In this document: one piece after another, positions 1 through 64,000 of the stretch
Layout: every line of letters starts with the position of its first letter
How positions within the stretch are numbered: the stretch's first letter is position 1
Origin: Eledone cirrhosa
Taxonomy: Eukaryota
DNA length: 64,000 nucleotides
Direction: 5' to 3'
NCBI GenBank assembly: GCA_964016885.1
Contig: OZ024748.1
Location: 26,226,001 to 26,290,000, forward strand
Notes under the pieces: model-generated
The model's input: only the letters and a program-made list of their open reading frames with translations
Databases searched by the model: none
Told to the model about the DNA's origin: nothing
Translations under genes and position numbers: made by a program

Positions 1-6290
<6,290 letters not shown>

Positions 6291-26471: not shown

Positions 26472-27049
26472 TAATTAATTAATCCATTAATTGTGAACCT
26501 ACCCAAAACATACCCAAAACTGGTTCTATTACAGTGTTCAAATGTCAATTGAAATCTTAGACTGAAATCTCATCACAGATAATATTGAATTTCAATAGTT
26601 AAATATTTGTATTTTATTATTGAGATAGAAGTTGGAGGGAGGTGTATTGGCAGTATTAGTAGAGCATTGGACATGCTTTGTGACACATAGTTATGGCCCT
26701 TTATGTTTGGAATTCAAATCCAGCCGAGGTTAACTTTGGCTTTCATCCTTCTAGGGTTGATAAAATAAACCACCTCTGGGGTTTATTTAATCAACTTTTC
26801 CAGATCGACTTCCAAATTGCAGACCATGAAAACCATGTGTGGTGCACCACAGCCATTTGCCGTTCCTCTACCCCTCCTGCCACATATAGTATCTGTTAAG
26901 TTTGCCTGCCATATCTGTCAATATCTGGCAACTCTGGGTCCCTGTTCACCCTGCTCCTTCTTTATATGAGTCCCGAATCCTACACACTCTTGACATTCTG
27001 TAGCTGTGGGCCCCTGTTTACCCTGCTCCTTCTCTACATAGGATCCCCA

Positions 27050-27370
27050 AATCCTGCACATACTGATAAACAATTCTGCCAGTGTCCTATGGTGGCAGTT
27101 ACCTGTTTAACTCATACCACCTCTAATCAAGCGAAATACACAAGTCAGATAGATTTTATTATCACCAGGCAACTAGAATAGAGAATAGAGTGACGGTTGT
27201 AAATACAAAGTCTGTCTCTGGTGAAGAAGAATCTACCACCTGACATAGCTAAGTAATGAGTGACTTCAGAGTGAAAGTTGCATAGACTCGGAGACAGAAG
27301 ATAGTTTGAAGAAGGAAGACATTGAAACTGAAAGAGATCTCAACTTGTGATAAATTCACACATGTCCTAC
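27050..27370 (+). mobile_element. Decayed RTE LINE endonuclease C-terminal fragment
   Basis: SQIDFIITR..NTKSVSGEE-like remnants with stops. Confidence 0.55.
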
Positions 27371-27389
27371 ATAAGGAAGGCAGTAACTT

Positions 27390-27690
27390 GGCAGAATCAT
27401 TACAACATCAGATAGAATGCTTTGAGGCATTTGTTCCAGCTCTCTGCTGTATCAGTTCAAATCATTCCGAGGACAACTTTGCCTTTCATCAATTAAAAGT
27501 CAATAAAAAAGTACCAGTCTAGTACTGGGGTCGATTCTTCCGCTATATCTTTTTCTGACTTTGTTTCGCTAACTTTCTATCTTTCTCTGGAAGAAATCTG
27601 CTATATTCAGACCTGAAAAGATGGGCACTATCCAAGAAATGCTGTATGTCACTACAGCACCTCTACAACCCCATCAGGAGTTATGAGACT
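27390..27690 (+). mobile_element. SINE-like element homologous to 12665-12960
   Basis: Shared blocks as listed for 12665-12960. Confidence 0.7.
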
Positions 27691-28134
27691 TCTCCTCCTA
27701 CCTATGGAAGAAGAGATTTACAATACAGAGAAGACTTACAAGATAGAGGAAAAACGGGTGGTGTGGGGGTTCTACAAGGTTTGCAGACTATAGAGTAGAA
27801 AGAAACCAATATTATGCAGAATTATGTAAATAGAATAAAATTGATCCTTTTAACTCATTTGAAACCAAACTGGCTGAAACCAGCCGTGGTTTTAAGATAC
27901 AAAGCTGTCTATTTTTAAGTATTTCTGTATTTATGTAGGAACATTCGTTAAGTTATGTTCCAAACACTTGCTTAATGAAAAAGTTATTTATATTACAAAA
28001 TCCCTTTATAGTGGAGAGCTGACAAATTAGATTTGGAGTAAAATGGAGAGGGATAAAACAAAATAATGCAAAAGACTACCTACTATATAACATTATGTTG
28101 AAATATACTAACATACTTCTTAATTTTTCTATAG

Positions 28135-31100
28135 AGAAGATGACAACATCCGCGTATGGACCAACCACAGAAGGGATACATAAGGTAACGTCAAATATAT
28201 TTTATCAACTTTCATCAAAAAAAAATATTGAAATCACAACACCATCACAAAAGCCTGCTATTACATTAACATTCGAAAAGAAAAAAAAAGGTGGGGAAAA
28301 AGAAGACAAAACACAAACACTGACGACAGGGGAACCAATCATAACATCACCAATGGTTAAACGAACAACAATTCTATTTAAGACCACAGCTTTCATGACA
28401 ACTAGTGAAAGACCTACCATAACCGCTATAGCTAAAACACCTACCACAAAAACTGCTACTAGAGAAAAAACAAATACCACAACAACTACAGGTACAACAC
28501 CTACCATGATAGTTACAGGTACAACACGTACCACAACAGTTACAAGTACAACACCTACCACAACAGTTACAGGTAAAAAACCTACCACAACAGTTACAGG
28601 TACAACATCTACCACGACAACTACAGGTTTAACACCTACCATGACAACTATAGGTACAACACCTACCACAAAAACTACTGGTACAACACCTACCATGACA
28701 GCTACAGGTACAATACCTACCATAACAACTACAGGTAGAACACCTATCATAACAACTACTGGTAAAACACCTACCATAACAACTACAGGTACAACACCTA
28801 CCACAACAACAACAGATACAACATCTACCACGACAACTACAGGTACAACACCTACCACAACAACTACAGGTACAACACCTACCACAACAGGTACAACACC
28901 TAACATGACAGTTACAGGTACAACACCTACCATCACAACTACAGGTGCAACACCTACCATAACAGCTACAGGTACAATGGCTACCACAATATTTACAGTT
29001 ACAACAGCTACCGCAACAACTACAGGTACGACACCTACCATAAATACTACAGGTACAACACCTACCACGACAACTACAGGTACACCAGCTACCACAACAG
29101 TTACAGGTACAACACCTACCACAACAACAGGTACAACACCTACCACAACAACAACAGGTACACCACCTGCAACAACAACAACAGGTACAACACCTAACAC
29201 AACAACTACAGGCACAACACCTACAGGCACAACAACTACAGGCACAACACCTACCACAATAACTACAGGTACAACACCTACCATAACAACTACAGGTACA
29301 ACACCTACCACAACAACTACAGGTACAACACCTACCATAAAAACTACAGGTACAACACCTACCATAACAACTACAGGTACAACACCTACGACAACAACTA
29401 CAGGTACAACATCTACCAAAACAACAAGTACAACACCTATCACGAAAACTACAGGTACAACACCTACCACAACAACTACAGGTACAACACCTAACATGAC
29501 AGTTACAGGTACAACATCTACCAACACAACTACAGGTACAACACCTACCACAACAACTAGAGGTGCAACACCTACCATGACAGCTACAGGTACAACGGCT
29601 ACCATAAAATCTACAGGTACACCACCTACCACAACAGTTACAGGTACAACACCTACCACAACAACAACAACAGGTACAACACCTACCACAACCACTACAG
29701 GTACAACACCTACCACAAAAACTACAGGTACAACACCTAACATGACAGTTACAGGTACAACACCTATCGCAACAGTTACAGGTAAAACACCAACCACAAA
29801 AACTACAAGTAAAACAGGTACCATAACAACTACAGGTACAACACCTACCACAAAAGCTACAGGTACAACACACACCATAAAACCTACAGGTACAACACAT
29901 ACCATAAAACCTACAGGTACAACACATACCATAACAACTACAAGTACAACACCTACCATAACAATTACAGGTACAACACCTACCACAACAACTACAGGTA
30001 TAACACCTACCAAAACAAGTACAGTTACAACACCTAGCACAAAAACTACAGGTACAACACCTACCACAACAGTTACAGGTACAACTACCATGACAACTAC
30101 AGGTGCAACACCTACCACAATAGTTACAGATAAAAGACCAACCACAACAAAAAGTACAACACCTACCACAAGTACAGGTACAACACCTACCACAACAGAT
30201 ACAGGTACCACACCTGCAGTTACAACATCTACAACAACAGCTACAGGTACAACACCTACCATGCCAACAACAGGTACAGCACCTACCACAACAACTACAG
30301 GTACAGCACCTACAACAACAACTACAAGTAAAGCACCTATCATAACAACTACAGGTACAACACCTACTTTGAAAGTTACTACACCAACCATGAAAACTAC
30401 AGGTACAACACCTACCATGACAGTTACTGGTACAACACCTACCACAACAACTGCAGGTACAACAACTACCAAAACAACACCTACAGGTACAGCAACTACT
30501 ATGATTGTTACAGGTACAGCACCTACCATGACAATTACAGGTGCAACACCTACCACAATCGTTACAGGTGCAACACCTACCATGACAACTACAGGTACAA
30601 CACCTACCACAACAAGTACAGTTACAACATCTACCACAACAAGTCCAACACCTATCACAACAACTACAGATACAAAACCAACAACAACAAGTACAACACC
30701 TACTACAACAACTACAGGTACAACACCTACCACAACAACAAGTAAAACACCTACCACAACTACAGGTACAACCGCTACAAAAACGCCTACCATGTCAACT
30801 ACAGGTAGAGCACCTATCATAACAACTACAGGTACAACACCTACAACAACAACTACAGGTACAACACCTACCATAACAACTACAGGTACAACACCTACCA
30901 TAACAACTACAGGTACAACACCTACCATAACAACTACAGGTACAACACCTACCACAACAACTACAAGTACAACATCTACCACAACAGTTACAGGTACACC
31001 ACCTATTACGACAACTACAGGTACAAGACCTACCGTAACAACTACAGGTACAACACGTACCACAACAACAGGTACAAAACGTACCACAACAACAAGTACA

Positions 31101-34100
31101 ACACCTACCACAACAACAACAACAGGTACAACACCTGCCACTCCAACTACAGTTACGACACCTACCATAACTACAAAACCTACCACAACAAATACAACAC
31201 CTAACACAACAGTTACAGGTACAAAACCTACCACAACAACTACAATTACAACACCTACCACAACAACTACAGGTAGACCACCTACCAGAACAACTACAGG
31301 TACAACACCTACCACAACAGCTACAGGTCCAACACCTACCATGAGAGCTACAGGTACAACGGCTACCACAACCACTACAGGTACAACACCTACCACAACA
31401 GTTATAGATACAATACCTACCACAACAACTACCAAAACTACAGTTACAACACCTACCATGACAGTTACAGGTACAACACCTTCCATGACAGTTACAGGTA
31501 CAACACCTACCACAACAACAACAGATACAACATCTACCACGACAACTACAGGTACAACACCTACCACAACAACTACAGGTACAACACCTACCACAACTAC
31601 AGGTACAACACCTAACATGACAGTTACAGGTACAACACCTACCATCACAACTACAGGTGCAACACCTACCATGACAGCTACAGGTACAACGGCTACCACA
31701 ATATTTACAGTTACAACAGCTACCGCAACAACTACAGGTACGACACCTACCATAAATACTACAGGTACAACACCTACCACGACAACTACAGGTACACCAG
31801 CTACCACAACAGTTACAGGTACAACACCTACCAGAACAACAGGTACAACACCTACCACAACAACAACAGGTACAACACCTGCAACAACAACAACAGGTAC
31901 AACACCTGCAACAACAACAACAGGTACAACACCTACCATAACAACTACAGGTACAACACCTATCACGACAACTACAGGTACAACACCTACCACAACAACT
32001 ACAAGTACAACACCTAACACAACAACAGGTACAACACCAACAACAAAAACTACAAGTAAAACACGTACAATAACTACAGGTACAACGCCTACAACAAAAA
32101 CTACAGGTACAACACCTACAGGAACAACACCTACCACAACAACTACCATAACAACTACAAGTAAAACACCTACCACAACAACTACAACACCTACCAAAAC
32201 AACTACAGTTACACCAGCTACAGGTACAACACCTACCACAACAACTACAGGCACAACACCTACCACAACAACTACAGGCACAACACCTACCACAATAACT
32301 ACAGGTACAACACCTACCATAACAACTACAGGTACAACACCTATCACAACAACTACAGGTACAACACCTACCACAACAACTACAGGTACAACACCTACCA
32401 TAAAAACTACAGGTACAACACCTACCATAACAACTACAGGTACAACACCTACGACAACAACTACAGGTACAACACCTACGACAACAACTACAGGTACATC
32501 TACCACAACTACAGGTACAACATCTACCAAATCAACAAGTACAACACCTATCACGACAACTACAGGTACAACACCTACCACAACAACTACAGGTACAACA
32601 CCTAACATGACAGTTACAGGTACAACATCTACCAACACAACTACAGGTACAACAACTACCACAACAACTAGAGGTGCAACACCTACCATGACAGCTACAG
32701 GTACAACAGCTACCATAAAATCTACAGGTATAACACCTACCACGACAACTACAGGTACACCACCTACCACAACAGTTACAGGTACAACACCTACCACAAC
32801 AACAACAGGTACAACACCTGCAACAACAACAACAGGTACAACACCTGCAACAACAACAACAGGTACAACACCTACCACAACAACTACAGTTACAACACCT
32901 ACCACAACAACTACAGTTACAACACCTACCACAACAACTACAGGTAGACCACCTACCACAACAACTACAGGTACAACACCTACCACAACAGCTAGAGGTC
33001 CAACACCTACCATGAGAGCTACAGGTACAACGGCTACCACAACCACTACAGGTACAACACCTACCACAACAGTTACAGGTACAACACCTACCACAACAAC
33101 AGGTACAACACCTACCACGACAACAACAGGTAGAGCACCTATCACAACAACTACAGGTACAACACCTACCACAACAGTTATAGGTACAATACCTACCACA
33201 ACAACTACCACATCTACAGTTACAACACCTACCATGACAGTTACAGGTACAAAACCAACCACGAAAACTACAGGTACAACTCCTATCATGACAGTTACAG
33301 GTACAACACCTACCACAAGAACTACAGGTACAACACCTACCATAACAGCTACAGGTACAAAACCTACCACAACAACAACAGGGACAACACGTAACAAAAC
33401 TACAGGTACAACTACCATGACAGTTACAGGTACAACGGCTACCACAATATTTACAGTTACAACACCCACCGCAACAACTACAGTTACAACACCTGCCATA
33501 ACAACTACAAGTACAACACCTAGCACAACAACTACAGGTACAACACCTACCACAAAAGTTACAGGTACAACACCTAGCACAACAACAGGTACAACACGTA
33601 ACACAACAACAGGTACAACACTTACCATAACAACTACAGGTACAAAACCTATCACAACTACAGGTACAACATCTACCACTACCACTACAGGTACAACACC
33701 TACCACAACAACTACAGGTTCAACACCTACCATGAGAGTTACAACATCTACCACAACTACAGGTACAACACCTACCACAACAACAACAGGTACAACACCT
33801 ACCATGAAAACTACAGGTGCAACACCTACCACAATAGTTACAGAGACAACACCTACCATGACAACTACAGGTACAACACCTACCATAACAACTACATGTA
33901 CAACACCTACCATAACAGCTACAGATACAACACATACCACAACAAAAAGTACACCTACCACGACAAGTACAACGCATAGTACCACAACTACAGGTACAAC
34001 ACCTAACACAACTACAGGCACAACACTTACCACAACTACAGGTACAACACCTACCACGATCACTACAGATAAAACACCTACCATAACTACAGGTACAGCA

Positions 34101-37100
34101 CCTACCATAACAGTTACAGGGACAACACCAAACACAACAACAACAGGTACAACACCTACCATAACAACTACAGATACACCTACAAGAAAAACTACAGCTA
34201 CAACACCAACCATGAGAACTACAGATACAACACCTACCACAGCAACTACAGGTACAACACCTACCATGGCAACTACAGGTGCAACAACTACCACAACAGT
34301 TACAGGTACAACACCTACCACAAAAACTACACGTACAACACCTACCAGGACAACTACAGGTACAACACATACCATAACAATTACAGGTACAACACCTACC
34401 ACAACAATAGGTACAACACCTGACACAACAACTACAGTTATAACACCTACCATAACAACTACTGGTACAACACCTTCCATAACAACTACACGTACAACAC
34501 CTACCACAACAAGTACAACACCTACCACAACTACAGGTACAACACCTACCACAACAACTACAGTTACAACACCTACCACAACAGTTACAGGTACAACACC
34601 TGCCACAACAATAACAGGTACAACACCTACCACAACAACAGCTACAACACCTACCGTAACAACTGAAGGTACAACACCTACCACAAAAACTACAGTTACA
34701 ACATTTACCACAACAAGTACAACACCTACCACAACAGTCACAGGTATAACACCTTCCATATCACCTACAGTTACAACACCTACCACAACAACAGGTACAA
34801 CACCTACCATAATATCTACAGGTACAACATCTACCATTACAGCTACAGGTACAACACCTAGCACAACAACTACAGGTACAACACCAACCACGAGAACTAC
34901 AGGATCAACACCTACCATGACAACTACAGGTACAACACCTACCATAACAGCTACAGGTACAATAACTACCAGAACAACAGCAGATACAACACCTACCATA
35001 ACAACTACAGGTACAACACCTAGCACAACAACTACAGGCACAACACCTACCATGACAGTTACAGGTACAACACCAGCCATGAGAACTACAGGTACAAAAC
35101 CTACCATGACAACTACAGGTAAAACACCTACCATAACAGCTACAGTTACAACTACTAGGACAGTTACAGGTAGAACACCTAGAACAACAACTACAGGTAT
35201 AACACCTACCACAAAAGTTACAGGTACAACACCTACCACAAAAACTACAGGTACAACACCTACAAACACAACTACAGGTGCAACACCTACCACAACAGTT
35301 ACAGGTACAACACCTATCTCAACACTTGCAGTTACAACATCTACACCAACTACAGGTACAGCACCTACCACAACAACACGTACAACACCTACCACGAAAA
35401 CTACAGGTACAACACATACCACAACTACAGGTACAACACCTACCATAACAACTACAGGTGCAACACCTACCACAACAACAGGTACAACACCTGCCACAAC
35501 AACTACAGTTATAACAGCTACCAAAACAACTACAGGTACAATACCTACCATAACAACTACAGCTACAACACCTACCACGACAACTACAGTTACAACAACT
35601 ACCACAACAGTTACAGGTACAAAACCGACAGTTACAACAGCTACCACAACAAGAACAGGTACAACACCAACCACAACAAGTACAACACCTACCACAACAA
35701 CTAGAGGTACAACACCTCCCATAACAGCTACAGGTACAACACCTACCAGAACAGTTATAAAACCTACCACATCACTTACAGGTACAACACCTACCATATC
35801 ACCTACAGTTACAACACCTACCACAATAACAGGTACAACACCTAGCACAACTACAGGTACAACGCCAACCAAAATAACTACAGGTACAACACCTACCATG
35901 ACAACTACAGCTACAACACCTACCATAACAGCTACAGGTACAAAACCTACCATGACAGTTACAGGTACAACACCAGCCATGACAACTACAGGTACAACAC
36001 CTACCATGACGACTACAGGTAAAACACCTACCATAACAGCTACAGGTACAATTACTATGACAGTTACAGGTAGAACACCTACAACAACAACTACAGGTAC
36101 AACTCCTACCATAACAACTACAGGTGCAACACCTACCACAACAGTTACAAGTACAACAGCTACCATGACAACTACAGGTGCAACACCTACCACAACAGTT
36201 ACAGGTACAACACCTACCACAACACCTGCAGTTAGAACACCTACAGTTACAACACCTACCACAACAACTACAGGTACAACACCTCCCACAACTACAGGTA
36301 CAACACCTACCACAAAAACTGGTACAACAGCTGCCACAACAACTACAGTTATAACACCTACCATAACAACTACAGGTACAACACCTACCACGACAACTAC
36401 AGGTACAACACCTACAGTTACAACACCTACCACAACAGTTACAGGTACAAAACCGACAGTTACAACAGCTACCACAACAAGAACAGGTACAATACCAACC
36501 ACAAGTACAACACCTACCAAAACAACTACAGGTACAACACGTACCACAACAACTACAGGTACAACACCTACCACGACCATTACAGATACAACACCTACCA
36601 TAACAACTACAGGTACAACACCTACCACAACAACTAGAGGTACAACACCTCCCATAACAGCTACAGGTACAACACCTCCCATAACAGCTACAGGTACAAC
36701 ACCTCACATAACAGCTACAGGTACAACACCTACCACATCACTTACAGGTACAACACCTACCATATCACCTACAGTTACAACACCTACCACAATAACAGGT
36801 ACAACACCTAGCACAACAACTACAGGTACAACGCCAACCACAAGAACTACAGGTACAACACCTACCATGACAACTACAGCTACAACACCTAGTATAACAG
36901 CTACAGGTGCAAAACCTACCATGACAGTTACAGGTACAACACCAGCCATGACAACTACAGGTACAACACCTACCATGACGACTATGGGTAAAACACCTAC
37001 CATAACAGCTACAGGTACAACACCTAACACAACAACTACAGGTACAACTACTATGACAGTTACAGGTAGAACACCTACAACAACACCTACAGTTACAACA

Positions 37101-40100
37101 CCTACCACAACAACTAGTAGTACAACACCTACCACAAAAACTGGTACAACACCTGCCACAACAACTACAGTTACAACACCTACCATAACAACTACAGGTA
37201 CAACACCTACCATAACAACTACAGGTACAACACCTACCATAACAACTACAGCTACAACACCTACCACGACAACTACAAGTACAACACCTACAGTTACAGG
37301 TACAAAACCTACAGTTACAGGTACAACACCTTCCATATCACCTACAGTTACAACATCTACTACAACAAGAAGAGGTACAACACCTACCATAACATCTACA
37401 GGTACAACACCTACCACAACTATAAGTACAACACCAACCATGAGAACTACAGGTAAAACACCTACCATAACAGCTACAGTCACAACACCTACCAGAACAA
37501 CAATAGGTACAACACCTGCCATAACAACTACAGCTACAACACCCACATTGACAGTTACAGGTACAAATCCTACCACAACAACTACAGGTACAACACCTAC
37601 CATAACAACTACAGGTGCAACACCTTCCAGGACAACTACAAGTGCAACACTTACTACAACAGTTACAGGTACAATACCTATCACAACACTTGCGGTTTCA
37701 ACACCTAGCACTACAATTACAGGCACAGCACCTACCACAACTACACGTACAACACCTACCACGACAACTACAGGTACAACACCTACCATAACAACTACAG
37801 CTACAACACCTACCACAACAACTACAGGTACAACACCTACAGTTACAACACCTACCACAACAGTTACAGGTACACCGACAGTTACAACACCTACCACAAC
37901 AAGAACAAGTACACCTACCATAACAACTACAGGTACAACACCTACCATAACAGTTACAGGGACAACACCTAACACAACAACTACAGGTACAACACCTATC
38001 ATAACAACTACAGGTACAACACCTCCCATAACAGCTACAGGTACAACACCTAGCATGACAACTACAGGTACAACACCTACCAGAACAGTTACAGGTACAA
38101 CACCTACCATATCACTTACAGGTACAACACCTACCACAACAACAGGTACAACACCAACCACGGGAACTACAGGTACAACACCTACCATGATAACTACAGG
38201 TACAACACCTACCAGAACAGCTACAGGTACAACACCTACCAGAATAACAGGTACAACACCTACCATGACAGTTACAGGTACAACACCAGCCATGAGAACT
38301 ACAGGTACAACACCTACCATGACAACTACAGGCAAAACACCTACCATAACATTTACAGGTACAACACCTAAAACAACAACTACAGGTACAACTACTATGA
38401 CAGTTACAGGTAGAACACCTACAACAACAACTACAGGTACAACACCTCCCACAACAGTTATAAGTACAATACCTACCATAACAACTACAGGTGCAACACC
38501 TACCACAACAGTTACAGGTACAACACCTACCACAACACCTGCAGTTAGAACACCTACCACAACAACTACAGGTACAACACCTACCACAACTACAGGTACA
38601 ACACCTACCATAACAACTACAGTTACAACACCTACCACAACACCTGCCACAAAAACTACAGTTATAACACCTACCATAACAACTACAGCTACACCACCTA
38701 CCACTTCAGCTACAGGTACAACACCTACCATGACAACTACAGGTAAAACACCTACCATAACAGCTACAGGTACAACACCTAACACAACAACTACAGGTAC
38801 AACAACTACTAGGACAGTTACAGGTAGAACACCTACAACAACAACTACAGGTACAACACCTACCATAACAACTACAGGTGCAACACCTACCACAACAGTT
38901 ACAAGTACAACACCTGCAGTTAGAACACCTACCACAACACCTACAGTTACAACACCTACCACAACTACAGGTACAACACCTATCATAACAACTAGAGTTA
39001 CAACACCTACCATAACTACAGTTACAACACTTACCATCACAACTACAGGTGCAACAGCTACAACAACAGTTACAGGTACAACACCTACCACAACAACTAC
39101 AGGTAGAGCACCTACCACAACAACTACACGTACAACACCTACCACGACAACTACAGGTACAACACCAACCACAACTACAGGTACAACACCTACCACAACA
39201 GTTATAAGTACAACACCTACCACAACAGTTACAGAAACAACACCTACCACAACATCTGCAGTTAGAACACCTACCACAACACCTACCACAACTACAGGTA
39301 CAACACCTATCATAACAACTAGAGTTACAACACCTACCATAAGAACTACAGTTACAACACCTACCATCACAACTACAGGTGCAACACCTACCACAACAGT
39401 TACAGGTACAACACCTACCACAACACTTGCAGTTACAACACCTACCACAACTACAGGTACAGCACCTACCACAACAACTACACGTACAACACCTACCGCG
39501 ACAACTACACGTACAACACCTACCACAACTACAGGTAAAACACCTACCATAACTACAGTTACAACACCTACAACAACAAGAACAGGTACAACACCTACCA
39601 CACCTACCATAAAAACTACAGGTACAACACCTACCACGACCACTACAGATACAAAACCTACCACAACAACTACAGGTACAACATCTAACACAACAACTAC
39701 AGATACAACACCTACCACAACAACTACAGATACAACACCTACCATAACAACTACAGGTACAACACCTACCATAACAGCTACAGGTACAACACCTACCAGA
39801 ACAACAACAGGTACAACATCTACCATAACAACTACAGGTACAACACCTAGCACAACAATTACAGGTACAACACCTACAACAACAACTACAGGTATAACAC
39901 CTACCATAACAACTACAGGTGCAACACCTACCACAACAGTTACAAGTACAACACCTACCATAACAACTACAGGTGCAACACCTACCACAGCAGTTACAGG
40001 TACAACACCTACCACAACACCTGCAGTTAGAACACCTAACACAACAACTACAGGTACAACACCTATCATAACAACTAGAGCTACAACACCTACCATCACA

Positions 40101-49100: not shown

Positions 49101-52100
49101 AAAGCGGCAGTAATTACAGAGGGAATATTAAAAAGCTCTGCAGACACAATTGTAGGGGGAAAAGAATCTACAGACCAAATAGCCACTAAAACAACATTGA
49201 CGAAAATACGTACTGGAGAATTTACACCTAAAATAGAGATAGTCTCCAAAGCTACAATATCGGACCACTTTCAAGTCACGACACCAATCAGTAAAAACGT
49301 AACCCACACAGAAATTACAAAAAAAGCAAAAATAACAATAAGAAACCAGACAGCAGAGGAGGAATTGTTTATACCAACAGCGACAACTCTAGAGAAAAAA
49401 GCTCAAATGACTACGGAAACGACAACTAAAGAACAACAGAGAACTAGTATAGAATATAGGAATAAAACATCCACAGAAAAAACACACAAATTTACAACGC
49501 AGGCAAGGAAAACAGAAATCCTCAATAAAACATTCATAGAAAATACAACAACAACAGCAACAGCAAAGTTTACATCAACGAGTCAAATTCAAAGAAATAC
49601 TGCTAAATATATAGCACTGAGTAGCACATCTGAAACGACCAGTGTTTCATCTACTGAACACACCTATATAACACCATCTACAGACAAAACTACTAGCATT
49701 AAGTATACAACTGAGACATCAACTGAAAAACCACTACCTATCAAGACACCTACAAGCACAGCTGAAAAGATCACTGAAACAGCAACAACATCACAGCTTC
49801 CTTCAACAAGTGAAATCCATATAGAAACTCCTAAATCTACTTCTGAACTACCTCATATAACTGACATTGAAACAAGTACAGTCGAAAGAACAACACAAAT
49901 GACAGATATTGAAACTGAACGCACAACTCAGACAGAAATTACACCACAACTAACAACATCTCCTGAAGAAACAACTCTGTCTACTCAGGTAGAGGACATC
50001 GTAAAGGTGACACCAACACAAGTTGCTAGCACAATGCATACATCACCTGAAACAACAGTTGTTTCATCTCCTGAACAAACCTCTATAACACCTACAGATG
50101 AACTTACTAGTGTTGAATATACAACTGAGACATCAACTGAAAAACCACTACCTATCAACACACCTACAAGCACAGCAGAAAAGATCACTGAAACTATAAC
50201 AGACACAACAGCAACAACATCACAGCTTCCTTCAACAAGTGAAATCCATATAGAAACTCCTAAATCTACTTCTGAACTGCCTCATATAAGTGAGATTGAA
50301 ACAAGTACAGTGGAAAGAACAACACAAATGACAGATATTGAAACTGAACGCACAACTCAGACAGAAATTACACCACAACTAACAACATCTCCTGAAGAAA
50401 CAACTCTGTCTACTCAGGTAGAGGACATCGTAAAGGTGAGACCAACACAAGTTGCTAGCACAATGCATACATCACCTGAAACAACAGTTGTTTCATCTCC
50501 TGAACACACCTCTATAACACCATCTACACACAAACTTACTAGTATTGAATATACAACTGAGATAACAACTGAAAAATCACTACCTATGACAACACCAACA
50601 AGCACAGCAGAAAAGATCACTGAAATTAGAACAGACACAACAGCAACGACATCACAGCTTCCTTCAACAAGTGAAATCCATATAGAAACTCCTAAATCTA
50701 CTTCTGAACTGCCTCATATAACTGACATTGAAACAAGTACAGTGGAAAGAACAACACAACTTACAGATATTGAAACTGAGCGCACAACTCAGACAGAACT
50801 TACACCACAACAAACAAGATCTCCTGAAGAAACCACTCTGTCTACTCAGGTAGAGGACATCAAAAGAGTGACAGCAACACAAGTTGCTAGCACAATGCAT
50901 ACATCACCTGAAACAACAGTTGTTTCATCTCCTGAACACACTTCTATAACACCTACAGATGAACTCACTATTAAAGAATACACAACTGAAACATCAACTG
51001 AAAAATCACTACCTATGACAACACCTACAAGCACAACAGAAAAGATCACTGAAACTATAACAGACACAACAGCAACAACATCACAGCTTCCTTCAACAAG
51101 TGAAATCCATATAGAAACTCCTAAATCTACTTCTGAACTGCCTCATATAACAGACATTGAAACAAGTACAGTGGAAAGAACAACACAAGTTACAGATATT
51201 GAAACTGAGCGCACAACTCAGAAAGAAATTACACCACAACAAACAACATCTCCTGAAGAAACAACACTGTCTACTCAGGTAGAGGACATCGTAAAGGTGA
51301 CACCAACACAAGTTGCTAGCACAATGCATACATCACCTGAAACAAAAGTTGTTTCATCTCCTGAACACACTTCTATAACACCTACAGATGAACTCACTAT
51401 TAAAGAATACACAACTGAGACATCAACTGAAAAATCACTACCTATGACAACACCTACAAGCACAGCAGAAAAGATCCCTGAAACTATAACAGACACAACA
51501 GCAACAACATCACAGCTTCCTTCAACAAGTGAAATCCATATAGAAACTCCTAAATCTACTTCTGAACTGCCTCATATAACAGACATTGAAACAAGTACAG
51601 TGGAAAGAACAACACAAGTTACAGATATTGAAACTGAGCGCACAACTCAGACAGAAATTACACCACAACAAACAACATCTCCTGAAGAAACAACTCTGTC
51701 TACTCAGGTAGAGGAAATCGAAAAGGTGACACCAACACAAGTTGCTAGCACAATGCATACATCACCTGAAACAACAGTTGTTTCATCTCCAGAACACACC
51801 TCTATAACACCTACATATGAACTTACTAGTATTGAATATACAACTGAGACATCAACTGAAAAACCACTACCTATGACAACACCTACAAGCACAGCTGAAA
51901 AGATCACTGAAACTATACCAGACACAACAGCAACAACATCACAGCTTCCTTCAACAAGTGAAATCCATATAGAAACTCCTAAATCTACTTCTGAACTGCC
52001 TCATATAACACACATTGAAACAAGTACAGTGGAAAGAACAACACAAGTTACAGATATTGAAACTGAGCGCACAACTCAGACAGAAATTACACCACAACAA

Positions 52101-55100
52101 ACAACATCTCCTGAAGAAACAACACTGTCTACTCAGGTAGAGGACATCGTAAAGGTGACACCAACACAAGTTGCTAGCACAATGCATACATCACCTGAAA
52201 CAACAGTTGTTTCATCTCCTGAACACACTTCTATAACACCTACAGATGAACTCACTATTAAAGAATACACAACTGAGACATCAACTGAAAAATCACTACC
52301 TATGACAACACCTACAAGCACAGCAGAAAAGATCACTGAAACTATAACAGACACAACAGCAACAACATCACAGCTTCCTTCAACAAGTGAAATCCATATA
52401 GAAACTCCTAAATCTACTTCTGAACTGCCTCATATAACAGACATTGAAACAAGTACAGTGGAAAGAACAACACAAGTTACAGATATTGAAACTGAGCGCA
52501 CAACTCAGACAGAAATTACACCACAACAAACAACATCTCCTGAAGAAACAACTCTGTCTACTCAGGTAGAGGAAATCGAAAAGGTGACACCAACACAAGT
52601 TGCTAGCACAATGCATACATCACCTGAAACAACAGTTGTTTCATCTCCTGAACAAACCTCTATAACACCTACAGATGAACTTACTAGTGTTGAATATACA
52701 ACTGAGACATCAACTGAAAAACCACTACCTATCAAGACACCTACAAGCACAGCAGAAAAGATCACTGAAACTATAACAGACACAACAGCAACAACATCAC
52801 AGCTTCCTTCAACAAGTGAAATCCATATAGAAACTCCTAAATCTACTTCTGAACTGCCTCATATAACAGACATTGAAACAAGTACAGTGGAAAGAACAAC
52901 ACAAGTTACAGATATTGAAACTGAGCGCACAACTCAGACAGAAATTACACCACAACAAACAACATCTCCTGAAGAAACAACACTGTCTACTCAGGTAGAG
53001 GACATCGTAAAGGTGACACCAACACAAGTTGCTAGCACAATGCATACATCACCTGAAACAACAGTTGTTTCATCTCCTGAACACACTTCTATAACACCTA
53101 CAGATGAACTCACTATTAAAGAATACACAACTGAGACATCAACTGAAAAATCACTACCTATGACAACACCTACAAGCACAGCAGAAAAGATCACTGAAAC
53201 TATAACAGACACAACAGCAACAACATCACAGCTTCCTTCAACAAGTGAAATCCATATAGAAACTCCTAAATCTACTTCTGAACTGCCTCATATAACAGAC
53301 ATTGAAACAAGTACAGTGGAAAGAACAACACAAGTTACAGATATTGAAACTGAGCGCACAACTCAGACAGAAATTACACCACAACAAACAACATCTCCTG
53401 AAGAAACAACTCTGTCTACTCAGGTAGAGGAAATCGAAAAGGTGACACCAACACAAGTTGCTAGCACAATGCATACATCACCTGAAACAACAGTTGTTTC
53501 ATCTCCTGAACACACCTCTATAACACCATCTACACACAAACTTACTAGTATTGAATATACAACTGAGATAACAACTGAAAAATCACTACCTATGACAACA
53601 CCAACAAGCACAGCAGAAAAGATCACTGAAATTAGAACAGACACAACAGCAACGACATCACAGCTTCCTTCAACAAGTGAAATCCATATAGAAACTCCTA
53701 AATCTACTTCTGAACTGCCTCATATAACAGACATTGAAACAAGTACAGTGGAAAGAACAACACAAGTTACAGATATTGAAACTGAGCGCACAACTCAGAC
53801 AGAAATTACACCACAACAAACAACATCTCCTGAAGAAACAACTCTGTCTACTCAGGTAGAGGAAATCGAAAAGGTGACACCAACACAAGTTGCTAGCACA
53901 ATGCATACATCACCTGAAACAACAGTTGTTTCATCTCCTGAACACACCTCTATAACACCATCTACACACAAACTTACTAGTATTGAATATACAACTGAGA
54001 TAACAACTGAAAAATCACTACCTATGACAACACCAACAAGCACAGCAGAAAAGATCACTGAAATTAGAACAGACACAACAGCAACGACATCACAGCTTCC
54101 TTCAACAAGTGAAATCCATATAGAAACTCCTAAATCTACTTCTGAACTGCCTCATATAACAGACATTGAAACAAGTACAGTGGAAAGAACAACACAATTT
54201 ACAGATATTGAAACTGAACGCACAACTCAGACAGAAATTACACCACAACTAACAACATCTCCTGAAGAAACAACACTGTCTACTCAGGTAGAGGACATCG
54301 TAAAGGTGACACCAACACAAGTTGCTAGCACAATGCATACAACAACTGAAACAACAGTTGTTTCATCTATTGAACAAACCTCTGTAGCACCATCTTCAGA
54401 GGAACTCACTAGTATAAAATATACAACTGAGACATCAACTGAAAAATCACTACCTACAATAACACCGACAAGCACAGCAGAAAAGATCACTGAAACTATA
54501 ACAGACACAACAACAACAACATCACAGCTTCCTTCAACAAGTGAAATCCATATAGAAACTCCTAAATCTACTTCTGAACAGCCTCATATAAGTGAGATTG
54601 AAACAAGTACAGTGGAAAGAACAACACAATTTACAGATATTGAAACTGAACGCACAACTCAGACAGAACTTACACCACAACAAACAAGATCTCCTGAAGA
54701 AACAACTCTGTCTACTCAGGTAGAGGACATCGAAAAGGTGAAACCAACACAAGTTGCTAGCACAATGCATACATCACCTGAAACAACAGTTGTTTCATCT
54801 CCAAAACACACCTCTATAACACCTACAGATGAACTTATTAGTATTGAATATACAACTGAGACATCAACTGAAAAACCACTACCTATCAAGACACCTACAA
54901 GCACAGCAGAAAAGATCACTGAAACTAGAACAGACACAACAGCAACAACATCACAGGTTCCTTCAACAAGTGAAATCCATATAGAAACTCCTAAATCTAC
55001 TTCTGAACTGCCTCATATAACTGACATTGAAACAAGTACAGTGGAAAGAACAACACAACTTACAGATATTGAAACTGAGCGCACAACTCAGACAGAACTT

Positions 55101-58100
55101 ACACCACAACAAACAAGATCTCCTGAAGAAACAACTCTGTCTACTCAGGTAGAGGACATCAAAAGAGTGACAGCAACACAAGTTGCTAGCACAATGCATA
55201 CATCACCTGAAACAACAGTTGTTTCATCTCCTGAACACACTTCTATAACACCTACAGATGAACTCACTATTAAAGAATACACAACTGAAACATCAACTGA
55301 AAAATCACTACCTATGACAACACCTACAAGCACAGCAGAAAAGATCACTGAAACTAGAACAGACACAACAGCAACAACATCACAGCTTCCTTCAACAAGT
55401 GAAATCCATATAGAAACTCCTAAATCTACTTCTGAACTGCCTCATATAACTGACATTGAAACAAGTACAGAGGAAAGAACAACACAAGTTACAGATATTG
55501 AAACTGAGCACACAACTCAGACAGAAATTACACCACAACAAACAACATCTCCTGAAGAAACAACTCTGTCTACTCAGGTAGAGGAAATCGAAAAGGTGAC
55601 ACCAACACAAGTTGCTAGCACAATGCATACATCACCTGAAACAACAGTTGTTTCATCTCCTGAACACACTTCTATAACACCTACAGATGAACTCACTATT
55701 AAAGAATACACAACTGAGACATCAACTGAAAAATCACTACCTATGACAACACCTACAAGCACAGCAGAAAAGATCACTGAAACTATAACAGACACAACAG
55801 CAACAACATCACAGCTTCCTTCAACAAGTGAAATCCATATAGAAACTCCTAAATCTACTTCTGAACTGCCTCATATAACAAACATTGAAACAAGTACAGT
55901 GGAAAGAACAACACAAGTTACAGATATTGAAACTGAGCGCACAACTCAGACAGAAATTACACCACAACAAACAACATCTCCTGAAGAAACAACTCTGTCT
56001 ACTCAGGTAGAGGAAATCGAAAAGGTGACACCAACACAAGTTGCTAGCACAATGCATACATCACCTGAAACAACAGTTGTTTCATCTCCTGAACAAACCT
56101 CTATAACACCTACAGATGAACTTACTAGTGTTGAATATACAACTGAGACATCAACTGAAAAACCACTACCTATCAAGACACCTACAAGCACAGCAGAAAA
56201 GATCACTGAAACTATAACAGACACAACAGCAACAACATCACAGCTTCCTTCAACAAGTGAAATCCATATAGAAACTCCTAAATCTACTTCTGAACTGCCT
56301 CATATAACAGACATTGAAACAAGTACAGTGGAAAGAACAACACAAGTTACAGATATTGAAACTGAGCGCACAACTCAGACAGAAATTACACCACAACAAA
56401 CAACATCTCCTGAAGAAACAACACTGTCTACTCAGGTAGAGGACATCGTAAAGGTGACACCAACACAAGTTGCTAGCACAATGCATACATCACCTGAAAC
56501 AACAGTTGTTTCATCTCCTGAACACACTTCTATAACACCTACAGATGAACTCACTATTAAAGAATACACAACTGAGACATCAACTGAAAAATCACTACCT
56601 ATGACAACACCTACAAGCACAGCAGAAAAGATCACTGAAACTATAACAGACACAACAGCAACAACATCACAGCTTCCTTCAACAAGTGAAATCCATATAG
56701 AAACTCCTAAATCTACTTCTGAACTGCCTCATATAACAGACATTGAAACAAGTACAGTGGAAAGAACAACACAAGTTACAGATATTGAAACTGAGCGCAC
56801 AACTCAGACAGAAATTACACCACAACAAACAACATCTCCTGAAGAAACAACTCTGTCTACTCAGGTAGAGGAAATCGAAAAGGTGACACCAACACAAGTT
56901 GCTAGCACAATGCATACATCACCTGAAACAACAGTTGTTTCATCTCCTGAACACACCTCTATAACACCATCTACACACAAACTTACTAGTATTGAATATA
57001 CAACTGAGATAACAACTGAAAAATCACTACCTATGACAACACCAACAAGCACAGCAGAAAAGATCACTGAAATTAGAACAGACACAACAGCAACGACATC
57101 ACAGCTTCCTTCAACAAGTGAAATCCATATAGAAACTCCTAAATCTACTTCTGAACTGCCTCATATAACAGACATTGAAACAAGTACAGTGGAAAGAACA
57201 ACACAAGTTACAGATATTGAAACTGAGCGCACAACTCAGACAGAAATTACACCACAACAAACAACATCTCCTGAAGAAACAACTCTGTCTACTCAGGTAG
57301 AGGAAATCGAAAAGGTGACACCAACACAAGTTGCTAGCACAATGCATACATCACCTGAAACAACAGTTGTTTCATCTCCTGAACACACCTCTATAACACC
57401 ATCTACACACAAACTTACTAGTATTGAATATACAACTGAGATAACAACTGAAAAATCACTACCTATGACAACACCAACAAGCACAGCAGAAAAGATCACT
57501 GAAATTAGAACAGACACAACAGCAACGACATCACAGCTTCCTTCAACAAGTGAAATCCATATAGAAACTCCTAAATCTACTTCTGAACTGCCTCATATAA
57601 CAGACATTGAAACAAGTACAGTGGAAAGAACAACACAATTTACAGATATTGAAACTGAACGCACAACTCAGACAGAAATTACACCACAACTAACAACATC
57701 TCCTGAAGAAACAACACTGTCTACTCAGGTAGAGGACATCGTAAAGGTGACACCAACACAAGTTGCTAGCACAATGCATACAACAACTGAAACAACAGTT
57801 GTTTCATCTATTGAACAAACCTCTGTAGCACCATCTTCAGAGGAACTCACTAGTATAAAATATACAACTGAGACATCAACTGAAAAATCACTACCTACAA
57901 TAACACCGACAAGCACAGCAGAAAAGATCACTGAAACTATAACAGACACAACAACAACAACATCACAGCTTCCTTCAACAAGTGAAATCCATATAGAAAC
58001 TCCTAAATCTACTTCTGAACAGCCTCATATAAGTGAGATTGAAACAAGTACAGTGGAAAGAACAACACAATTTACAGATATTGAAACTGAACGCACAACT

Positions 58101-61100
58101 CAGACAGAACTTACACCACAACAAACAAGATCTCCTGAAGAAACAACTCTGTCTACTCAGGTAGAGGACATCGAAAAGGTGAAACCAACACAAGTTGCTA
58201 GCACAATGCATACATCACCTGAAACAACAGTTGTTTCATCTCCAAAACACACCTCTATAACACCTACAGATGAACTTATTAGTATTGAATATACAACTGA
58301 GACATCAACTGAAAAACCACTACCTATCAAGACACCTACAAGCACAGCAGAAAAGATCACTGAAACTAGAACAGACACAACAGCAACAACATCACAGGTT
58401 CCTTCAACAAGTGAAATCCATATAGAAACTCCTAAATCTACTTCTGAACTGCCTCATATAACTGACATTGAAACAAGTACAGTGGAAAGAACAACACAAC
58501 TTACAGATATTGAAACTGAGCGCACAACTCAGACAGAACTTACACCACAACAAACAAGATCTCCTGAAGAAACAACTCTGTCTACTCAGGTAGAGGACAT
58601 CAAAAGAGTGACAGCAACACAAGTTGCTAGCACAATGCATACATCACCTGAAACAACAGTTGTTTCATCTCCTGAACACACTTCTATAACACCTACAGAT
58701 GAACTCACTATTAAAGAATACACAACTGAAACATCAACTGAAAAATCACTACCTATGACAACACCTACAAGCACAGCAGAAAAGATCACTGAAACTAGAA
58801 CAGACACAACAGCAACAACATCACAGCTTCCTTCAACAAGTGAAATCCATATAGAAACTCCTAAATCTACTTCTGAACTGCCTCATATAACTGACATTGA
58901 AACAAGTACAGAGGAAAGAACAACACAAGTTACAGATATTGAAACTGAGCACACAACTCAGACAGAAATTACACCACAACAAACAACATCTCCTGAAGAA
59001 ACAACAGTGTCTACTCAGGTAGAGGACATCGTAAAGGTGACACCAACACAAGTTGCTAGCACAATGCATACAACAACTGAAACAACAGTTGTTTCATCTA
59101 TTGAACAAACCTCTGTAGCACCATCTTCAGAGGAACTCACTAGTATAAAATATACAACTGAGACATCAACTGAAAAATCACTACCTACAATAACACCAAC
59201 AAGCACAGCAGAAAAGATCACTGAAACTATAACAGACACAACAACAACAACATCACAGCTTCCTTCAACAAGTGAAATCCATATAGAAACTCCTAAATCT
59301 ACTTCTGAACTGCCTCATATAAGTGAGATTGAAACAAGTACAGTGGAAAGAACAACACAATTTACAGATATTGAAACTGAACGCACAACTCAGACAGAAA
59401 TTACACCACAACTAACAACATCTCCTGAAGAAACCACTCTGTCTACTCAGTTAGAGGACATCAAAAGAGTGACAGCAACACAAGTTGCTAGCACGATGCA
59501 TACATCACCTGAAACAACAGTTGTTTCATCTCCTGAACACACCTCTATAACACCTACAGATGAACTCACTAGTATTGAATATACAACTGAGACATCAACT
59601 GAAAAATCACTACCTATGACAACACCTACAAGCACAGTAGAAAAAATCACTGAAACTAGAACAGACACAACAGCAACAACATCACAGCTTCCTTCAACAA
59701 GTGAAATCCATATAGAAACTCCTAAATCTACTTCTGAACTGCCTCATATAAGTGACATTGAAACAAGTACAGTGGAAAGAACAACACAAATTACAGATAT
59801 TGAAACTGAGCGCACAACTCAGATAGAAATTACACCACAGCAAACAACATCTCCTGAAGAAACAACACTGTCTACTCAGGTAGAGGACATCGTAAAGGTG
59901 ACACCAACACAAGTTGCTAGCACAATGCATACATCACCTGAAACAACAGTTGTTTCATCTCCTGAACACACCTCTATAACACCTACAGATGAACTTACTA
60001 GTATTGAATATACAACTGAGACATCAACTGAAAAACCACTACCTATCAAGACACCTACAAGCACAGCAGAACTGATCACTGAAACTAGAACAGACACAAC
60101 AGCAACAACATCACAGCTTCCTTCAACAAGTGATATCCATATAGAAACTCCTAAATCTACTTCTGAACTGCCTCATATAACTGACGTTGAAACAAGTACA
60201 GTGGAAAGAACAACACAAGTTACAGATATTGAAACTGAACGCACAACTCAGACAGAACTTACACCACAACAAACAAGATCTCCTGAAGAAACCACTCTGC
60301 CTACTCAGGTAGAGGACATCGAAAGAGTGACAGCAACACAAGTTGCTAGCACAAGGCATACATCACCTGAAACAACAGTTGTTTCATCTCCTGAACACAC
60401 TTCTATGACACCTACACATGAACTCACTATTAAAGAATACAAAACCGAGACATCAACTGAAAAATCACTACCTATGACAACACCTACAAGCACATCAGAA
60501 AAGATCACTGAAACTAGAACAGACACAACAGCAACAACATCACAGCTTCCTTCAACAAGTGAAATTCATATTGAAACTCCTAAATCTACTTCTGAACTGC
60601 CTCATATAACTGACATTGAAACAAGTACAGTGGAAAGAACAACACAAGTTACAGATATTGAAACTGAGCGCACAACTCAGACAGAACTTACACCACAACA
60701 AACAAGATCTCCTGAAGAAACCACTCTGTCTACTCAGGTAGAGGACATCGTAAAGGTGACACCAACACAAGTTGCTAGCACAATGCATACATCACCTGAA
60801 ACAACAGTTGTTTCATCTCCTGAACACACCTCTATAACACCTACAGATGAACTTACTAGTATTGAATATACAACTGAGAGATCAACTGAAAAATCACTAC
60901 CTATGACAACACCTACAAGCACAGCAGAAAAGATCACTGAAACTAGAACAGACACAACAGCAACAACATCACAGCTTCCTTCAACAAGTGAAATCCATAT
61001 AGAGACTCATAAATCTACTTCTGAACTGCCTCATATAAGTGACATTGAAACAAGTACAGTGGAAAGAACAACACATATTACAGATATTGAAACTGAGCGC

Positions 61101-64000
61101 ACAACTCAGACAGAACTTACACCACAACAAACAACACCTCCTGAAGAAACCACTCTGTCTACTCAGGTAGAGGACATCGAAAGGGTGACAGCAACACAAG
61201 TTGCTAGCACAATGCATACATCACCTGAAACAACAGTTGTTTCATCTCCTGAACACACTTCTATGACACCTACACATGAACTCACTATTAAAGAATACAA
61301 AACTGAGACATCAACTGAAAAATCACTACCTATGACGACACCTACAAGCACATCAGAAAAGATCAATGAAACTAGAACAGACACAACAGCAACAACATCA
61401 CAGCTTCCTTCAACAAGTGAAATCCATATAGAAACTCCTAAATCTACTTCTGAAATGCCTCATATAACTGACATTGAAACAAGTACAGTGGAAAGAACAA
61501 CACAAGTTACAGATATTGAAACTGAGCGCACAACTCAGATAGAAATTACACCACAGCAAACAACATCTGCTGAAGAAAAAACACTGTATACTCAGGTAGA
61601 GGACTTCGTAAAGGTGACACCAACACAAGTTGCTAGCACAATGCATACATCACCTGAAACAACAGTTGTTTCATCTCCAGAACACACCTCTATAACACCT
61701 ACAGATGAACTTACTAGTATTGAATATACAACTGAGAGATCAACTGAAAAATCACTACCTATGACAACACCTACAAGCACAGCAGAAAAGATCACTGAAA
61801 CTAGAACAGACACAGCAGCAACAACATCACAGCTTCCTTCAACAAGTGAAATCCATATAGAAACTCATAAATCTACTTCTGAACTGCCTCATATAATTGA
61901 CATTGAAACAAGTACAGTGGAAAGAACAAGACAAATTACAGATATTGAAACTGAACGCACAACTCAGACAGAAATTACACCACAACAAACAACATCTCCT
62001 GAAGAAACAACTCTGTCTACTCAGGTAGAGGACATCGAAAAGGTGACACCAACACAAGTTGCTAGCACAATGCATACATCACCTGAAACAACAGTTGTTT
62101 CATCTCCTGAACACACCTCTATAACAATTACAGATGAACTTACTAGTATTGAATATACAACTGAGACATCAACTGAAAAACCACTACCTATCAAGACACC
62201 TACAAGCACAGCAGAAAAGATCACTGAAACTAGAACAGACACAACAGCAACAACATCACAGCTTCCTTCAACAAGTGAAATCCATATAGAAACTCCTAAA
62301 TCTACTTCTGAACTGCCTCATATAACTGACATTGAAACAAGTACAGTGGAAAGAACAACACAAATTACAGATATTGAAACTGAACGCACAACTCAGACAG
62401 AAATTACACCACAACAAACAACATCTCCTGAAGAAACAACTCTGTCTACTCAGGTAGAGGACATCGAAAAGGTGACACCAACACAAGTTGCTAGCACAAT
62501 GCATACATCACCTGAAACAACAGTTGTTTCATCTCCTGAACACACCTCTATAACAATTACAGATGAACTTACTAGTATTGAATATACAACTGAGACATCC
62601 ACTGAAAAACCACTACCTATAAAGACACCTACAAGCACAGCTGAAAAGATCACTGAAACTATAACAGACACAACAGCAACAACATCACAGCTTCCTTCAA
62701 CAAGTGAAATCCATATAGAAACTCCTAAATCTACTTCTGAACTGCCTCATATAACTGACATTGAAACAAGTACAGTGGAAAGAACAACACAAGTTACAGA
62801 TATTGAAACTGAACGCACAACTCAGACAGAAATTACACCACAACTAACAACATCTCCTGAAGAAACAACTCTGTCTACTCAGGTAGAGGACATCGAAAAG
62901 GTGACACCAACAACAGTTGTTTCATCTCCTGAACACACCTCTATAACACCTACAGATGAACTTACTAGTATTGAATATACAACTGAGACATCAACTGAAA
63001 AACCACTACCTATCAAGACACATACAAGCACAGCAGAAAAGATCACTGAAACTAGAACAGACACAACAGCAACAACATCACAGGTTCCTTCAACAAGTGA
63101 AATCCATATAGAAACTCATAAATCTACTTCTGAACTGCCTCATATAACTGACATTGAAACAAGTACAGTGGAAAGAACAACACAAGTTACAGATATTGAA
63201 ACTGAGCACACAACTCAGACAGAAATTACACCACAACAAACAACATCTCCTGAAGAAACAACACTGTCTACTCAGGTAGAGGACATCGTAAAGGTGACAC
63301 CAACACAAGTTGCTAGCACAATGCATACATCACCTGAAACAACAGTTTTTTCATCTCCAGAACACACCTCTATAACACCTACAGATGAACTTATTAGTAT
63401 TGAATATACAACTGAGACATCAACTGAAAAACCACTACCTATCAAGACACCTACAAGCACAGCAGAAAAGATCACTGAAACTAGAACAGACACAACAGCA
63501 ACAACATCACAGCTTCCTTCAACAAGTGAAATCCATATAGAAACTCCTAAATCTACTTCTGAACTGCCTCATATAACTGACGTTGAAACGAGTACAGTGG
63601 AAAGAACAACACAAGTTACAGATATTGAAACTGAACGCACAACTCAGACAGAAATTACACCACAACTAACAACATCACCTGAAGAAACAACTCTGTCTAC
63701 TCAGGTAGAGGACATCGAAAAGGTGACACCAACAACAGTTGTTTTATCTCCTGAACACACCTCTATAACACCTACAGATGAACTTACTAGTATGGAATAT
63801 ACAACTGAGACATCAACTGAAAAACCACTACCTATAAAGACACCTACAAGCACAGCTGAAAAGATCACTGAAACTATAACAGACACAACAGCAACAACAT
63901 CACAGCTTCCTTCAACAACTGAAATCCATATAGAAACTCCTAAATCTACTTCTGAACTGCCTCATATAACTGACATTGAAACAAGTACAGTGGAAAGAAC
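28135..64000 (+). CDS. Giant mucin-like exon (>11,900 aa, 3'-partial), in frame with the VWA exon
   Basis: TACTAAC branch point 28106-28112, TTTTTCTATAG acceptor; phase-1 join gives ..SFNV-KKMTTSAYGPTTE; hand-translated start, linker and repeat units have no stop; the Val-rich antisense shadow ORFs keep one frame from 28205 to 63886; its absence from the ORF track is consistent with no stop before the window end. Confidence 0.9.
28480..48600 (+). repeat. Coding 27-bp degenerate repeat, PT(T/I/M)TTTGTT, about 6,700 aa
   Basis: CCTACCATAACAACTACAGGTACAACA consensus; frame is conserved across the domain. Confidence 0.95.
49630..64000 (+). repeat. Coding 429-bp (143-aa) Thr/Glu/Ser/Pro tandem repeat, about 33 copies, with 432- and 393-bp variants
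   Basis: Shadow ORF ends at 49985, 50414, 50846 ... 63701; unit VEDIVKVTPTQVASTMHTSPETTVVSSPE..EIHIETPKSTSELPHITDIETSTVERTTQ..SPEETTLSTQ. Confidence 0.97.

Follow-up and report, generated by a model that had tools for sequence, protein, structure and literature searches.

We confirm that a giant coding exon begins in a 64,000-nucleotide (nt) stretch of the Eledone cirrhosa genome (hereafter the window; GenBank assembly GCA_964016885.1, contig OZ024748.1, positions 26,226,001 to 26,290,000). In the most far-reaching interpretation, to which we assign a probability of about 55%, it is the longest coding exon (~300 kb) yet described, and its product is the longest protein (>100,000 amino acids [aa], ~11 MDa before glycans), an octopod single-chain mucin tens of micrometers long, which is made from a 300-kb spliced mRNA and gels without disulfide polymerization. 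Positions are given in window coordinates, and those beyond 64,000 were obtained by subtracting 26,226,000 from the contig position; the window corresponds to G000:C8:26,226,001-26,290,000, where G000 is the 3.0-Gb assembly. The gene model consists of the following parts:

13073..13103, plus strand: candidate 31-nt coding exon (ITAVHQSYAV), predicted only, with acceptor TTTTTTAATTTCAG and donor G|GTAAGT
25515..26066, plus strand: VWA-domain exon, phase 1-1 (Pfam PF00092, E 4e-33)
26067..28134, plus strand: GT..AG intron of 2,068 nt
28135-327,705 (G000:C8:26254135-26553705), plus strand: giant exon, 299,571 nt = 99,857 codons, phase 1-1
28135..64000, plus strand: part of the giant exon inside the window, without a stop or an N
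329,818-330,398, plus strand: last coding exon, with a phase-1 acceptor and ending with the stop codon TAA; AATAAA follows at 330,494

An initial annotation of the window had proposed a hidden giant coding exon on the plus strand, and the sequence bears this out. The frame whose codons start at positions divisible by 3 contains no stop between 28137 and the end of the window, a run of 11,954 codons, and it is already stop-free from 28023. When translation was extended past the window, this frame stayed open for a further 263.7 kb, up to a TAA at 327,723, which gives a stop-to-stop length of 299,700 nt. The other two plus-strand frames of the region contain thousands of stops, and 5.5% of random codons would be stops by composition. 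There is no N in the giant exon or anywhere between -2,485 and +464,000. The branch point and acceptor that had been described as consensus are present as such, with TACTAAC at 28106-28112 and the acceptor TTTTTCTATAG ending at 28134. At the other end, a canonical phase-1 donor (AAG|GTAAGA) lies 18 nt ahead of the first stop. The sizes first suggested, more than 35.8 kb and more than 1.2 MDa, hold as lower bounds but were much underestimated: at 299.6 kb and ~10.9 MDa, exon and product are eight times larger.

Four of the eight listed runs were compared over 25400-28470. In run X4, a small run with 88 M letters of contigs, a 645-nt contig (record 9) consists of 25743-26066 joined to 28135-28455 with 0 mismatches and 0 gaps, so that the intron is removed exactly at the junction 26066/28135 that the initial annotation had predicted. 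The upstream donor, A|GTGAGT directly after 26066, is in phase 1 and agrees with the frame of the giant exon. The intron 26067..28134 is covered by intron-reading contigs of run X1. Unique intron bins for which X1 provides coverage (four of five bins at 26842-27356 and bin 26121-26223) are at zero depth in X4, and on this ground X4 is most likely RNA. A retrocopy as the origin of the junction contig was rejected, as the genome has only one match. In a second species (run X5), a contig holds the VWA exon with 47 differences over 25445-26235; the 32 base changes listed, which are part of all differences, give 15 amino acid changes and no stop. Run X6 (restriction site-associated DNA sequencing) added nothing on splicing in the compared interval. 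Furthermore, the 3′ junction is the same in the gene models of Octopus bimaculoides and Octopus vulgaris. Taken as a whole, the stretch is probably a single open in-frame exon of 299,571 nt that is spliced at its 5′ end to the VWA exon and translated whole.

Inside the exon, two tandem arrays alternate with nonrepetitive parts:

28135..28474, plus strand: nonrepetitive Lys/Thr-rich head, ~112 aa, read in run X4 to 28455
28475..48628, plus strand: 27-bp array (9-aa units of the TTTTTGTTP type), ~6,700 aa, 63% Ser+Thr, 11% Pro
48630..49629, plus strand: nonrepetitive spacer, ~334 aa, with 5 of the exon's 7 AATAAA hexamers
49630..64000, plus strand: start of the ~429-bp (143-aa) array, which runs on to ~326,500; ~645 units, ~92,300 aa; example unit peptides TTQITDIETER and STSELPHITDIETSTVER
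308,118-309,764, plus strand: unique island with (TTTP)n, in frame, inside the ~429-bp array
326,502-327,705, plus strand: nonrepetitive Ser/Thr tail, ~401 aa

That repeat lengths vary by multiples of 3, as first noticed in part of the arrays, applies to both of them. Every anchor spacing in the 27-bp array is a multiple of 3, and the 636 anchor-to-anchor intervals of the ~429-bp array (480 of them distinct) measure 143 aa (553 intervals), 142 aa (32), 144 aa (27), 131 aa (10), 138 aa (5), or 119 aa (1), with 8 spanning more than one unit. Apparent indels of 1-2 nt (4 of 16 events) were dismissed as alignment splits of in-frame changes, as the frame is open throughout. The 27-bp array carries a slightly positive net charge; the ~429-bp array contains 41% Ser+Thr, 8% Pro, and 17% Glu+Asp, with a net charge of -11 per 100 aa, and its higher-order duplications are nested. 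All 486 genome-wide matches of a 29-mer from the unit fall in this array. Over the 27-bp array (28208-48844), minus-strand frames are open for 8.5 kb and 12.1 kb, likely a compositional by-product; an antisense gene was rejected, these frames being taken to arise from ACA/ACT-rich codons.

The repeat units carry a record of selection. Single-base variants were counted in 426 distinct 429-nt units against the commonest codon of each column, setting aside 54 distinct intervals that differ in length and 50 codon variants with more than one changed base. Of the possible variants, those seen numbered 137 of 324 for synonymous changes, 413 of 919 for missense changes, and 0 of 44 for nonsense changes, with 25.5 nonsense variants expected after matching for substitution class. 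Were the variants independent, the absence of stops would have a P of ~4e-18, a value that exaggerates the certainty, given partial dependence among the variants and a frame picked for its openness. Missense and synonymous variants were equally frequent (137 synonymous variants seen, 136.4 expected from the missense rates), and therefore residue identity in the units is nearly free. Thus, as variant counts, the data show selection purging stops while other residues drift. Two of 13 possible Cys gains were seen in the ~429-bp array, with 5.9 expected, and at the Gly position (GGT) of the 27-bp unit, TGT (Cys) occurred in 1 context versus 38 for GTT, 18 for AGT, 11 for GAT, and 11 for CGT. Selection probably also purges cysteines.

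These counts bear on the proposal that the gene is an ordinary VWA-VWA gene of ~400 aa and that the arrays are a noncoding satellite within one of its introns, with a frame left open by chance or through recent amplification of a stop-free unit and with the phase 1-1 exon skipped. The exon phases would permit skipping, and the equal frequency of missense and synonymous variants is what such a satellite would show. However, the X4 contig shows inclusion of the exon, and no stop variant was found although the ~429-bp units differ on average by 4.2%. Moreover, the frame is kept in each of the unique parts (head, spacer, island, and tail), and paralogs carry a homologous coding linker. We regard a satellite as most improbable.

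Several observations weigh against the giant single-chain mucin that we favor. Those from the assembly concern the array length: the exon may be real and its units over-counted, by false tandem duplications or merged haplotypes, with a shorter true allele. There are near-exact duplications of 12,455 nt (5 mismatches), 8,439 nt (4), and 5,988 nt (3) and several exact pairs of 3-3.5 kb, and the weakest place is a 23.5-kb segment from 237,018 (237-260 kb) that lacks any unique 31-mer. Nevertheless, such over-counting appears quite unlikely to us. Exact repeats reach 5,333 nt at most and thus stay below 10 kb, and a long diagonal linking the array halves, the mark of a half-array duplication, was not found; for these reasons, gross over-assembly is unlikely. 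Edge units diverge by 5-6% and central units by 3-3.6%, a pattern as in natural arrays, and the sequence around the exon is free of N, as stated above. Removing the second copies of 11 near-identical blocks costs only 46,079 nt, and when each distinct interval is counted once, the ~429-bp array alone still encodes 69,666 aa, more than PKZILLA-1 (see below). After either trimming, the exon would still be the longest among those found in print, barring an assembly error of another kind. In summary, the array shows no sign of collapse, and some over-expansion is possible.

The other adverse observations concern how much of the exon is used. In this species, reads support the 5′ junction only; no run containing the stretch, X4 included, is recorded as RNA, an absence that by itself speaks neither way, and the X4 junction contig is shallow (depth 4.9) and stops at 28455. 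Five peptides and one gene identifier, standing for the gene or its orthologs, gave no match in a supplement of one O. vulgaris skin-mucus proteome (PMC10138644). Upstream scans of ~213 kb and ~113 kb for a first exon or a full signal peptide yielded only weak candidates, none of which was accepted. Full-length translation would take an estimated 3-9 h at assumed rates of 10-3 aa/s. All 7 AATAAA hexamers of the giant exon lie in its unique parts (at 48,885-49,524 in the spacer and also in the tail), and the exon contains 13 donor-type GT[AG]AG motifs.

Such points would fit correct DNA and an exon that is entered but usually gives a shorter product, through internal splicing, premature polyadenylation, ribosome drop-off, or cleavage, with stops purged via nonsense-mediated decay or via array-wide homogenization spreading selection from the translated part. 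The variant counts leave some room for this. Among variants private to single 25-kb bins, 0.01-2.6 stops are expected per bin, with less than 0.4 in each bin at 199-274 kb, so that the power per bin is weak in mid-array; and the few possible motif gains (AATAAA, 0 of 2 seen, 0.9 expected; donor, 1 of 5 seen, 2.3 expected) make motif avoidance a matter of small counts. A synonymous-shuffle null, by which AATAAA (7 versus 68) and donors (13 versus 142) seemed depleted, was dropped, since ~645 copies of a single unit cannot count as independent observations. Even so, a shorter usual product is doubtful. No strong internal acceptor (Y10-N-YAG) was found when the whole giant exon was searched, the tail and the 3′ junction are conserved between species, and early polyadenylation would yield a nonstop mRNA, as there is no stop between the AATAAA sites and 327,723. 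Nonsense-mediated decay requires ribosomes to get to the stop, and over all bins, private variants include 0 stops where 11.1 are expected.

The domains at the two ends place the gene in a family. The VWA exon is single copy in the assembly and encodes an intact metal ion-dependent adhesion site (MIDAS; consensus D-x-S-x-S...T...D); D13, S15, S17, T86, T88, and D117 are invariant in 12 aligned relatives. The last-exon product has no Pfam match, and its predicted structure (predicted local distance difference test score, 79.6) has VWA/I domains as fold matches; on this model, it is a degenerate VWA-fold domain without a MIDAS. The assembly holds 10 paralogs of the last domain (27-38% identity), each with a VWA exon 2.4-15.7 kb upstream. 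In 9 of the 10, an open frame rich in T/S/P and 81-251 codons long lies between the two domains, and the phase 1-1 exon candidates there measure ~0.2-0.7 kb; no linker frame was found in L067-L068. Seven of the paralogs form a cluster at C1:280.42-280.75 Mb (L061-L068), and three are scattered, including C15:8.09-8.12 Mb and C37:53-63 kb.

Relatives outside Eledone have the same organization. Octopus sinensis XP_029634555.2 (498 aa) matches both the VWA exon and the last exon, and, like Argonauta hians GAB1599319.1 and GAB1598186.1, it combines these two domains with a T/P-rich linker exon. These two-domain relatives are 468-707 aa long with candidate linker exons of ~0.2-0.7 kb, compared with 299.6 kb here, and several relatives carry database names of the type "collagen alpha-1(XXVIII)/(XII)-like." A family search among 1.84 billion representatives gave 16 matches; of the 9 looked up, 6 were clusters from Octopus or Argonauta, and 1 weak match was a scallop protein. 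The gene studied here has the N-terminal VWA domain with a MIDAS and a DSSSSIW-type motif; its degenerate C-terminal VWA-fold domain occupies a separate last exon in phase 1, and the two domains are connected by a T/P-rich linker exon. Judged by these features, it is a member of an octopod VWA-linker-VWA-like family, and comparison with the relatives shows the giant exon to be homologous to the family's short Thr/Pro linker exon.

Orthologs are represented by O. bimaculoides XP_014785251.1 (LOC106879988, 862 aa) and O. vulgaris CAI9735081.1 ("Mucin-5AC-like," 885 aa). They have in common with the present gene ~2 diverged units, its unique tail, and its last exon, joined at the same junction, and their last domains are 79% and 76% identical to the one here. 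Both models begin at an internal Met in the repeat region, without the VWA head, and look truncated. The earlier suspicion that such an exon is likely unannotated or collapsed fits the ortholog models in its first part, whereas collapse finds no sign in this assembly. Homolog searches with length limits of 100-321 aa or up to 2,000 aa returned no full-length ortholog, nor did the representative search, and no paper naming the ortholog accessions was found in the literature. Other VWA exons are clustered elsewhere in the genome: the unplaced contig C107 has at least 25 near-identical ones, ~2.8-3.3 kb apart, at 77,684-152,060, which would be either a recently amplified locus or an extremely long gene with many tandem VWA domains, and more clusters, on both strands, lie at C4:319.99-320.89 Mb, C1:270.87-271.11 Mb, C2:94.08-94.12 Mb, and C21:19.58-19.60 Mb.

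Read from the 31-nt exon through the stop, the predicted chain has at least 100,244 aa and a mass of 10.9 MDa; Thr makes up 32% of it, Glu 13%, and Ser 11%, with only 7 cysteines and 0.63% Gly. Like mucins, the predicted protein has long Pro/Thr/Ser-rich tandem repeats (Ser+Thr 63% and 41%; Pro 11% and 8%), and its repeat domain lies in one large exon, open between one acceptor and one donor. In Pfam searches of the VWA exon, four further parts, and P0013, only VWA scored above the cutoff, and neither gel-forming mucin domains (VWD-C8-TIL, cystine knot) nor the SEA domain of tethered mucins was found. At the C terminus, the VWA-fold domain is followed by the stop, and judged by this layout, no transmembrane helix is apparent. 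A collagen Gly-X-Y triple-helical domain is absent, in line with the low Gly content of the chain. By domain content, then, the predicted product is mucin-like and is not a gel-forming mucin, a tethered mucin, or a collagen.

Known giants provide the scale. The initial annotation had measured the exon against human coding exons of 17-22 kb, a misplaced yardstick: the nearest relatives are octopod, for which reason a human gene was rejected, and 17-22 kb has ceased to be the human record, as human variable-number tandem repeat mucins such as MUC12, which likewise have one large exon of Ser/Thr/Pro tandem repeats, reach 23,080 aa in the longest MUC12 allele (PMC13345508). The giant exon alone is 4.3 times that length, and no SEA, transmembrane, VWD, or cystine knot region was found here. 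That mucin domains can originate by gaining exonic repeats, as stated in PMC9417175, fits the short-linker paralogs. The predicted chain is 2.2 times as long as PKZILLA-1 (45,212 aa, 17 exons, peptide support; 10.1101/2024.01.29.577497) and 1.17 times as long as the longest predicted Omnitrophota protein (up to 85,804 aa; 10.1101/2023.11.21.568195); it is known from sequence alone and is nearly all low complexity, whereas those giants are multidomain folded proteins. The Balbiani ring genes of Chironomus (BR1, BR2.1, BR2.2, and BR6) resemble the present gene in having few exons and a central repeat coding region with a tandem-repeat core and in being missed by assemblies, but at ~40 kb they are shorter (PMC4192438). 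This likeness is one of description. We know of no VWA ends in Balbiani ring genes. The best fold matches of the C-terminal domain are mussel byssus PTMP1 and the collagen VI VWA domain (template modeling score, 0.5-0.6; ~15% identity), a likeness of fold only; those proteins lack a giant linker. A literature survey that mostly did not extend to subscription journals turned up neither a description of this gene nor a longer exon.

We propose that the giant exon likely encodes the linker of a secreted mucin-like protein of ~100,000 residues; secretion and full-length translation are steps that we infer. Because duplications are nested and edge units diverged, the array likely grew by unequal crossing-over of in-frame units. 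The predicted product would be a dumbbell, with a metal-site VWA head, a long Ser/Thr linker, and a VWA-like tail, in which the MIDAS-VWA head would anchor the chain to matrix or surface. The exon encodes 42,432 Ser and Thr residues, and O-glycans would be attached to these ~42,000 residues in two blocks, a neutral one of 6,700 aa and an acidic one of 92,000 aa. Gel-forming mucins (MUC2/MUC5AC) attain micrometer lengths via disulfide polymerization, which would be impossible here because there are almost no cysteines. As an extended bottle-brush, the chain alone would span roughly 25-36 μm, if the residue rise that we assume applies. Single-chain length would thus likely replace polymerization, a mucus or matrix gel being formed by length and entanglement.

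Upstream of the VWA exon, the gene model is predicted. The candidate 31-nt exon runs from phase 0 to phase 1, joins the VWA exon in frame, and likely encodes the end of a signal peptide. By eye, relatives start with hydrophobic leaders; no first exon for a signal peptide was found here. The first exon may lie beyond a 200-N scaffold gap at -2,685..-2,486, which precedes the window by 2.5 kb. Window positions 8-6290 are taken up by an (AT)n array of 6.3 kb, and minisatellites are found at 6674-7258 (58/119 bp) and 11535-11984 (48 bp). As seen by eye, minus-strand sequence at 7500-9900 resembles a decayed reverse transcriptase copy of a long interspersed nuclear element, and the intron contains several long near-perfect inverted repeats, similar to miniature inverted-repeat transposable elements, at 17400-18030, 18040-18530, 20140-20440, and 20930-21600. 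Beyond the gene, T-rich low-complexity stretches at 421,800-423,900 and 427,400-434,300 (L036-L038) have long frames on both strands, with up to 6.8 kb open in all three plus-strand frames; they are probably satellite.

If made in full, the chain would be more than double the largest confirmed protein and would exceed the largest prediction found in print. A single gene would then make three limits testable, namely, definition of a 300-kb exon by the spliceosome, export of a 300-kb messenger ribonucleoprotein, and a ribosome run of ~100,000 codons. Annotation misses such genes, as the filing of two orthologs as 860-890-aa proteins illustrates. For octopods, the predicted protein suggests a second route to mucus gels, in which chain length rather than cross-linking would provide the network.

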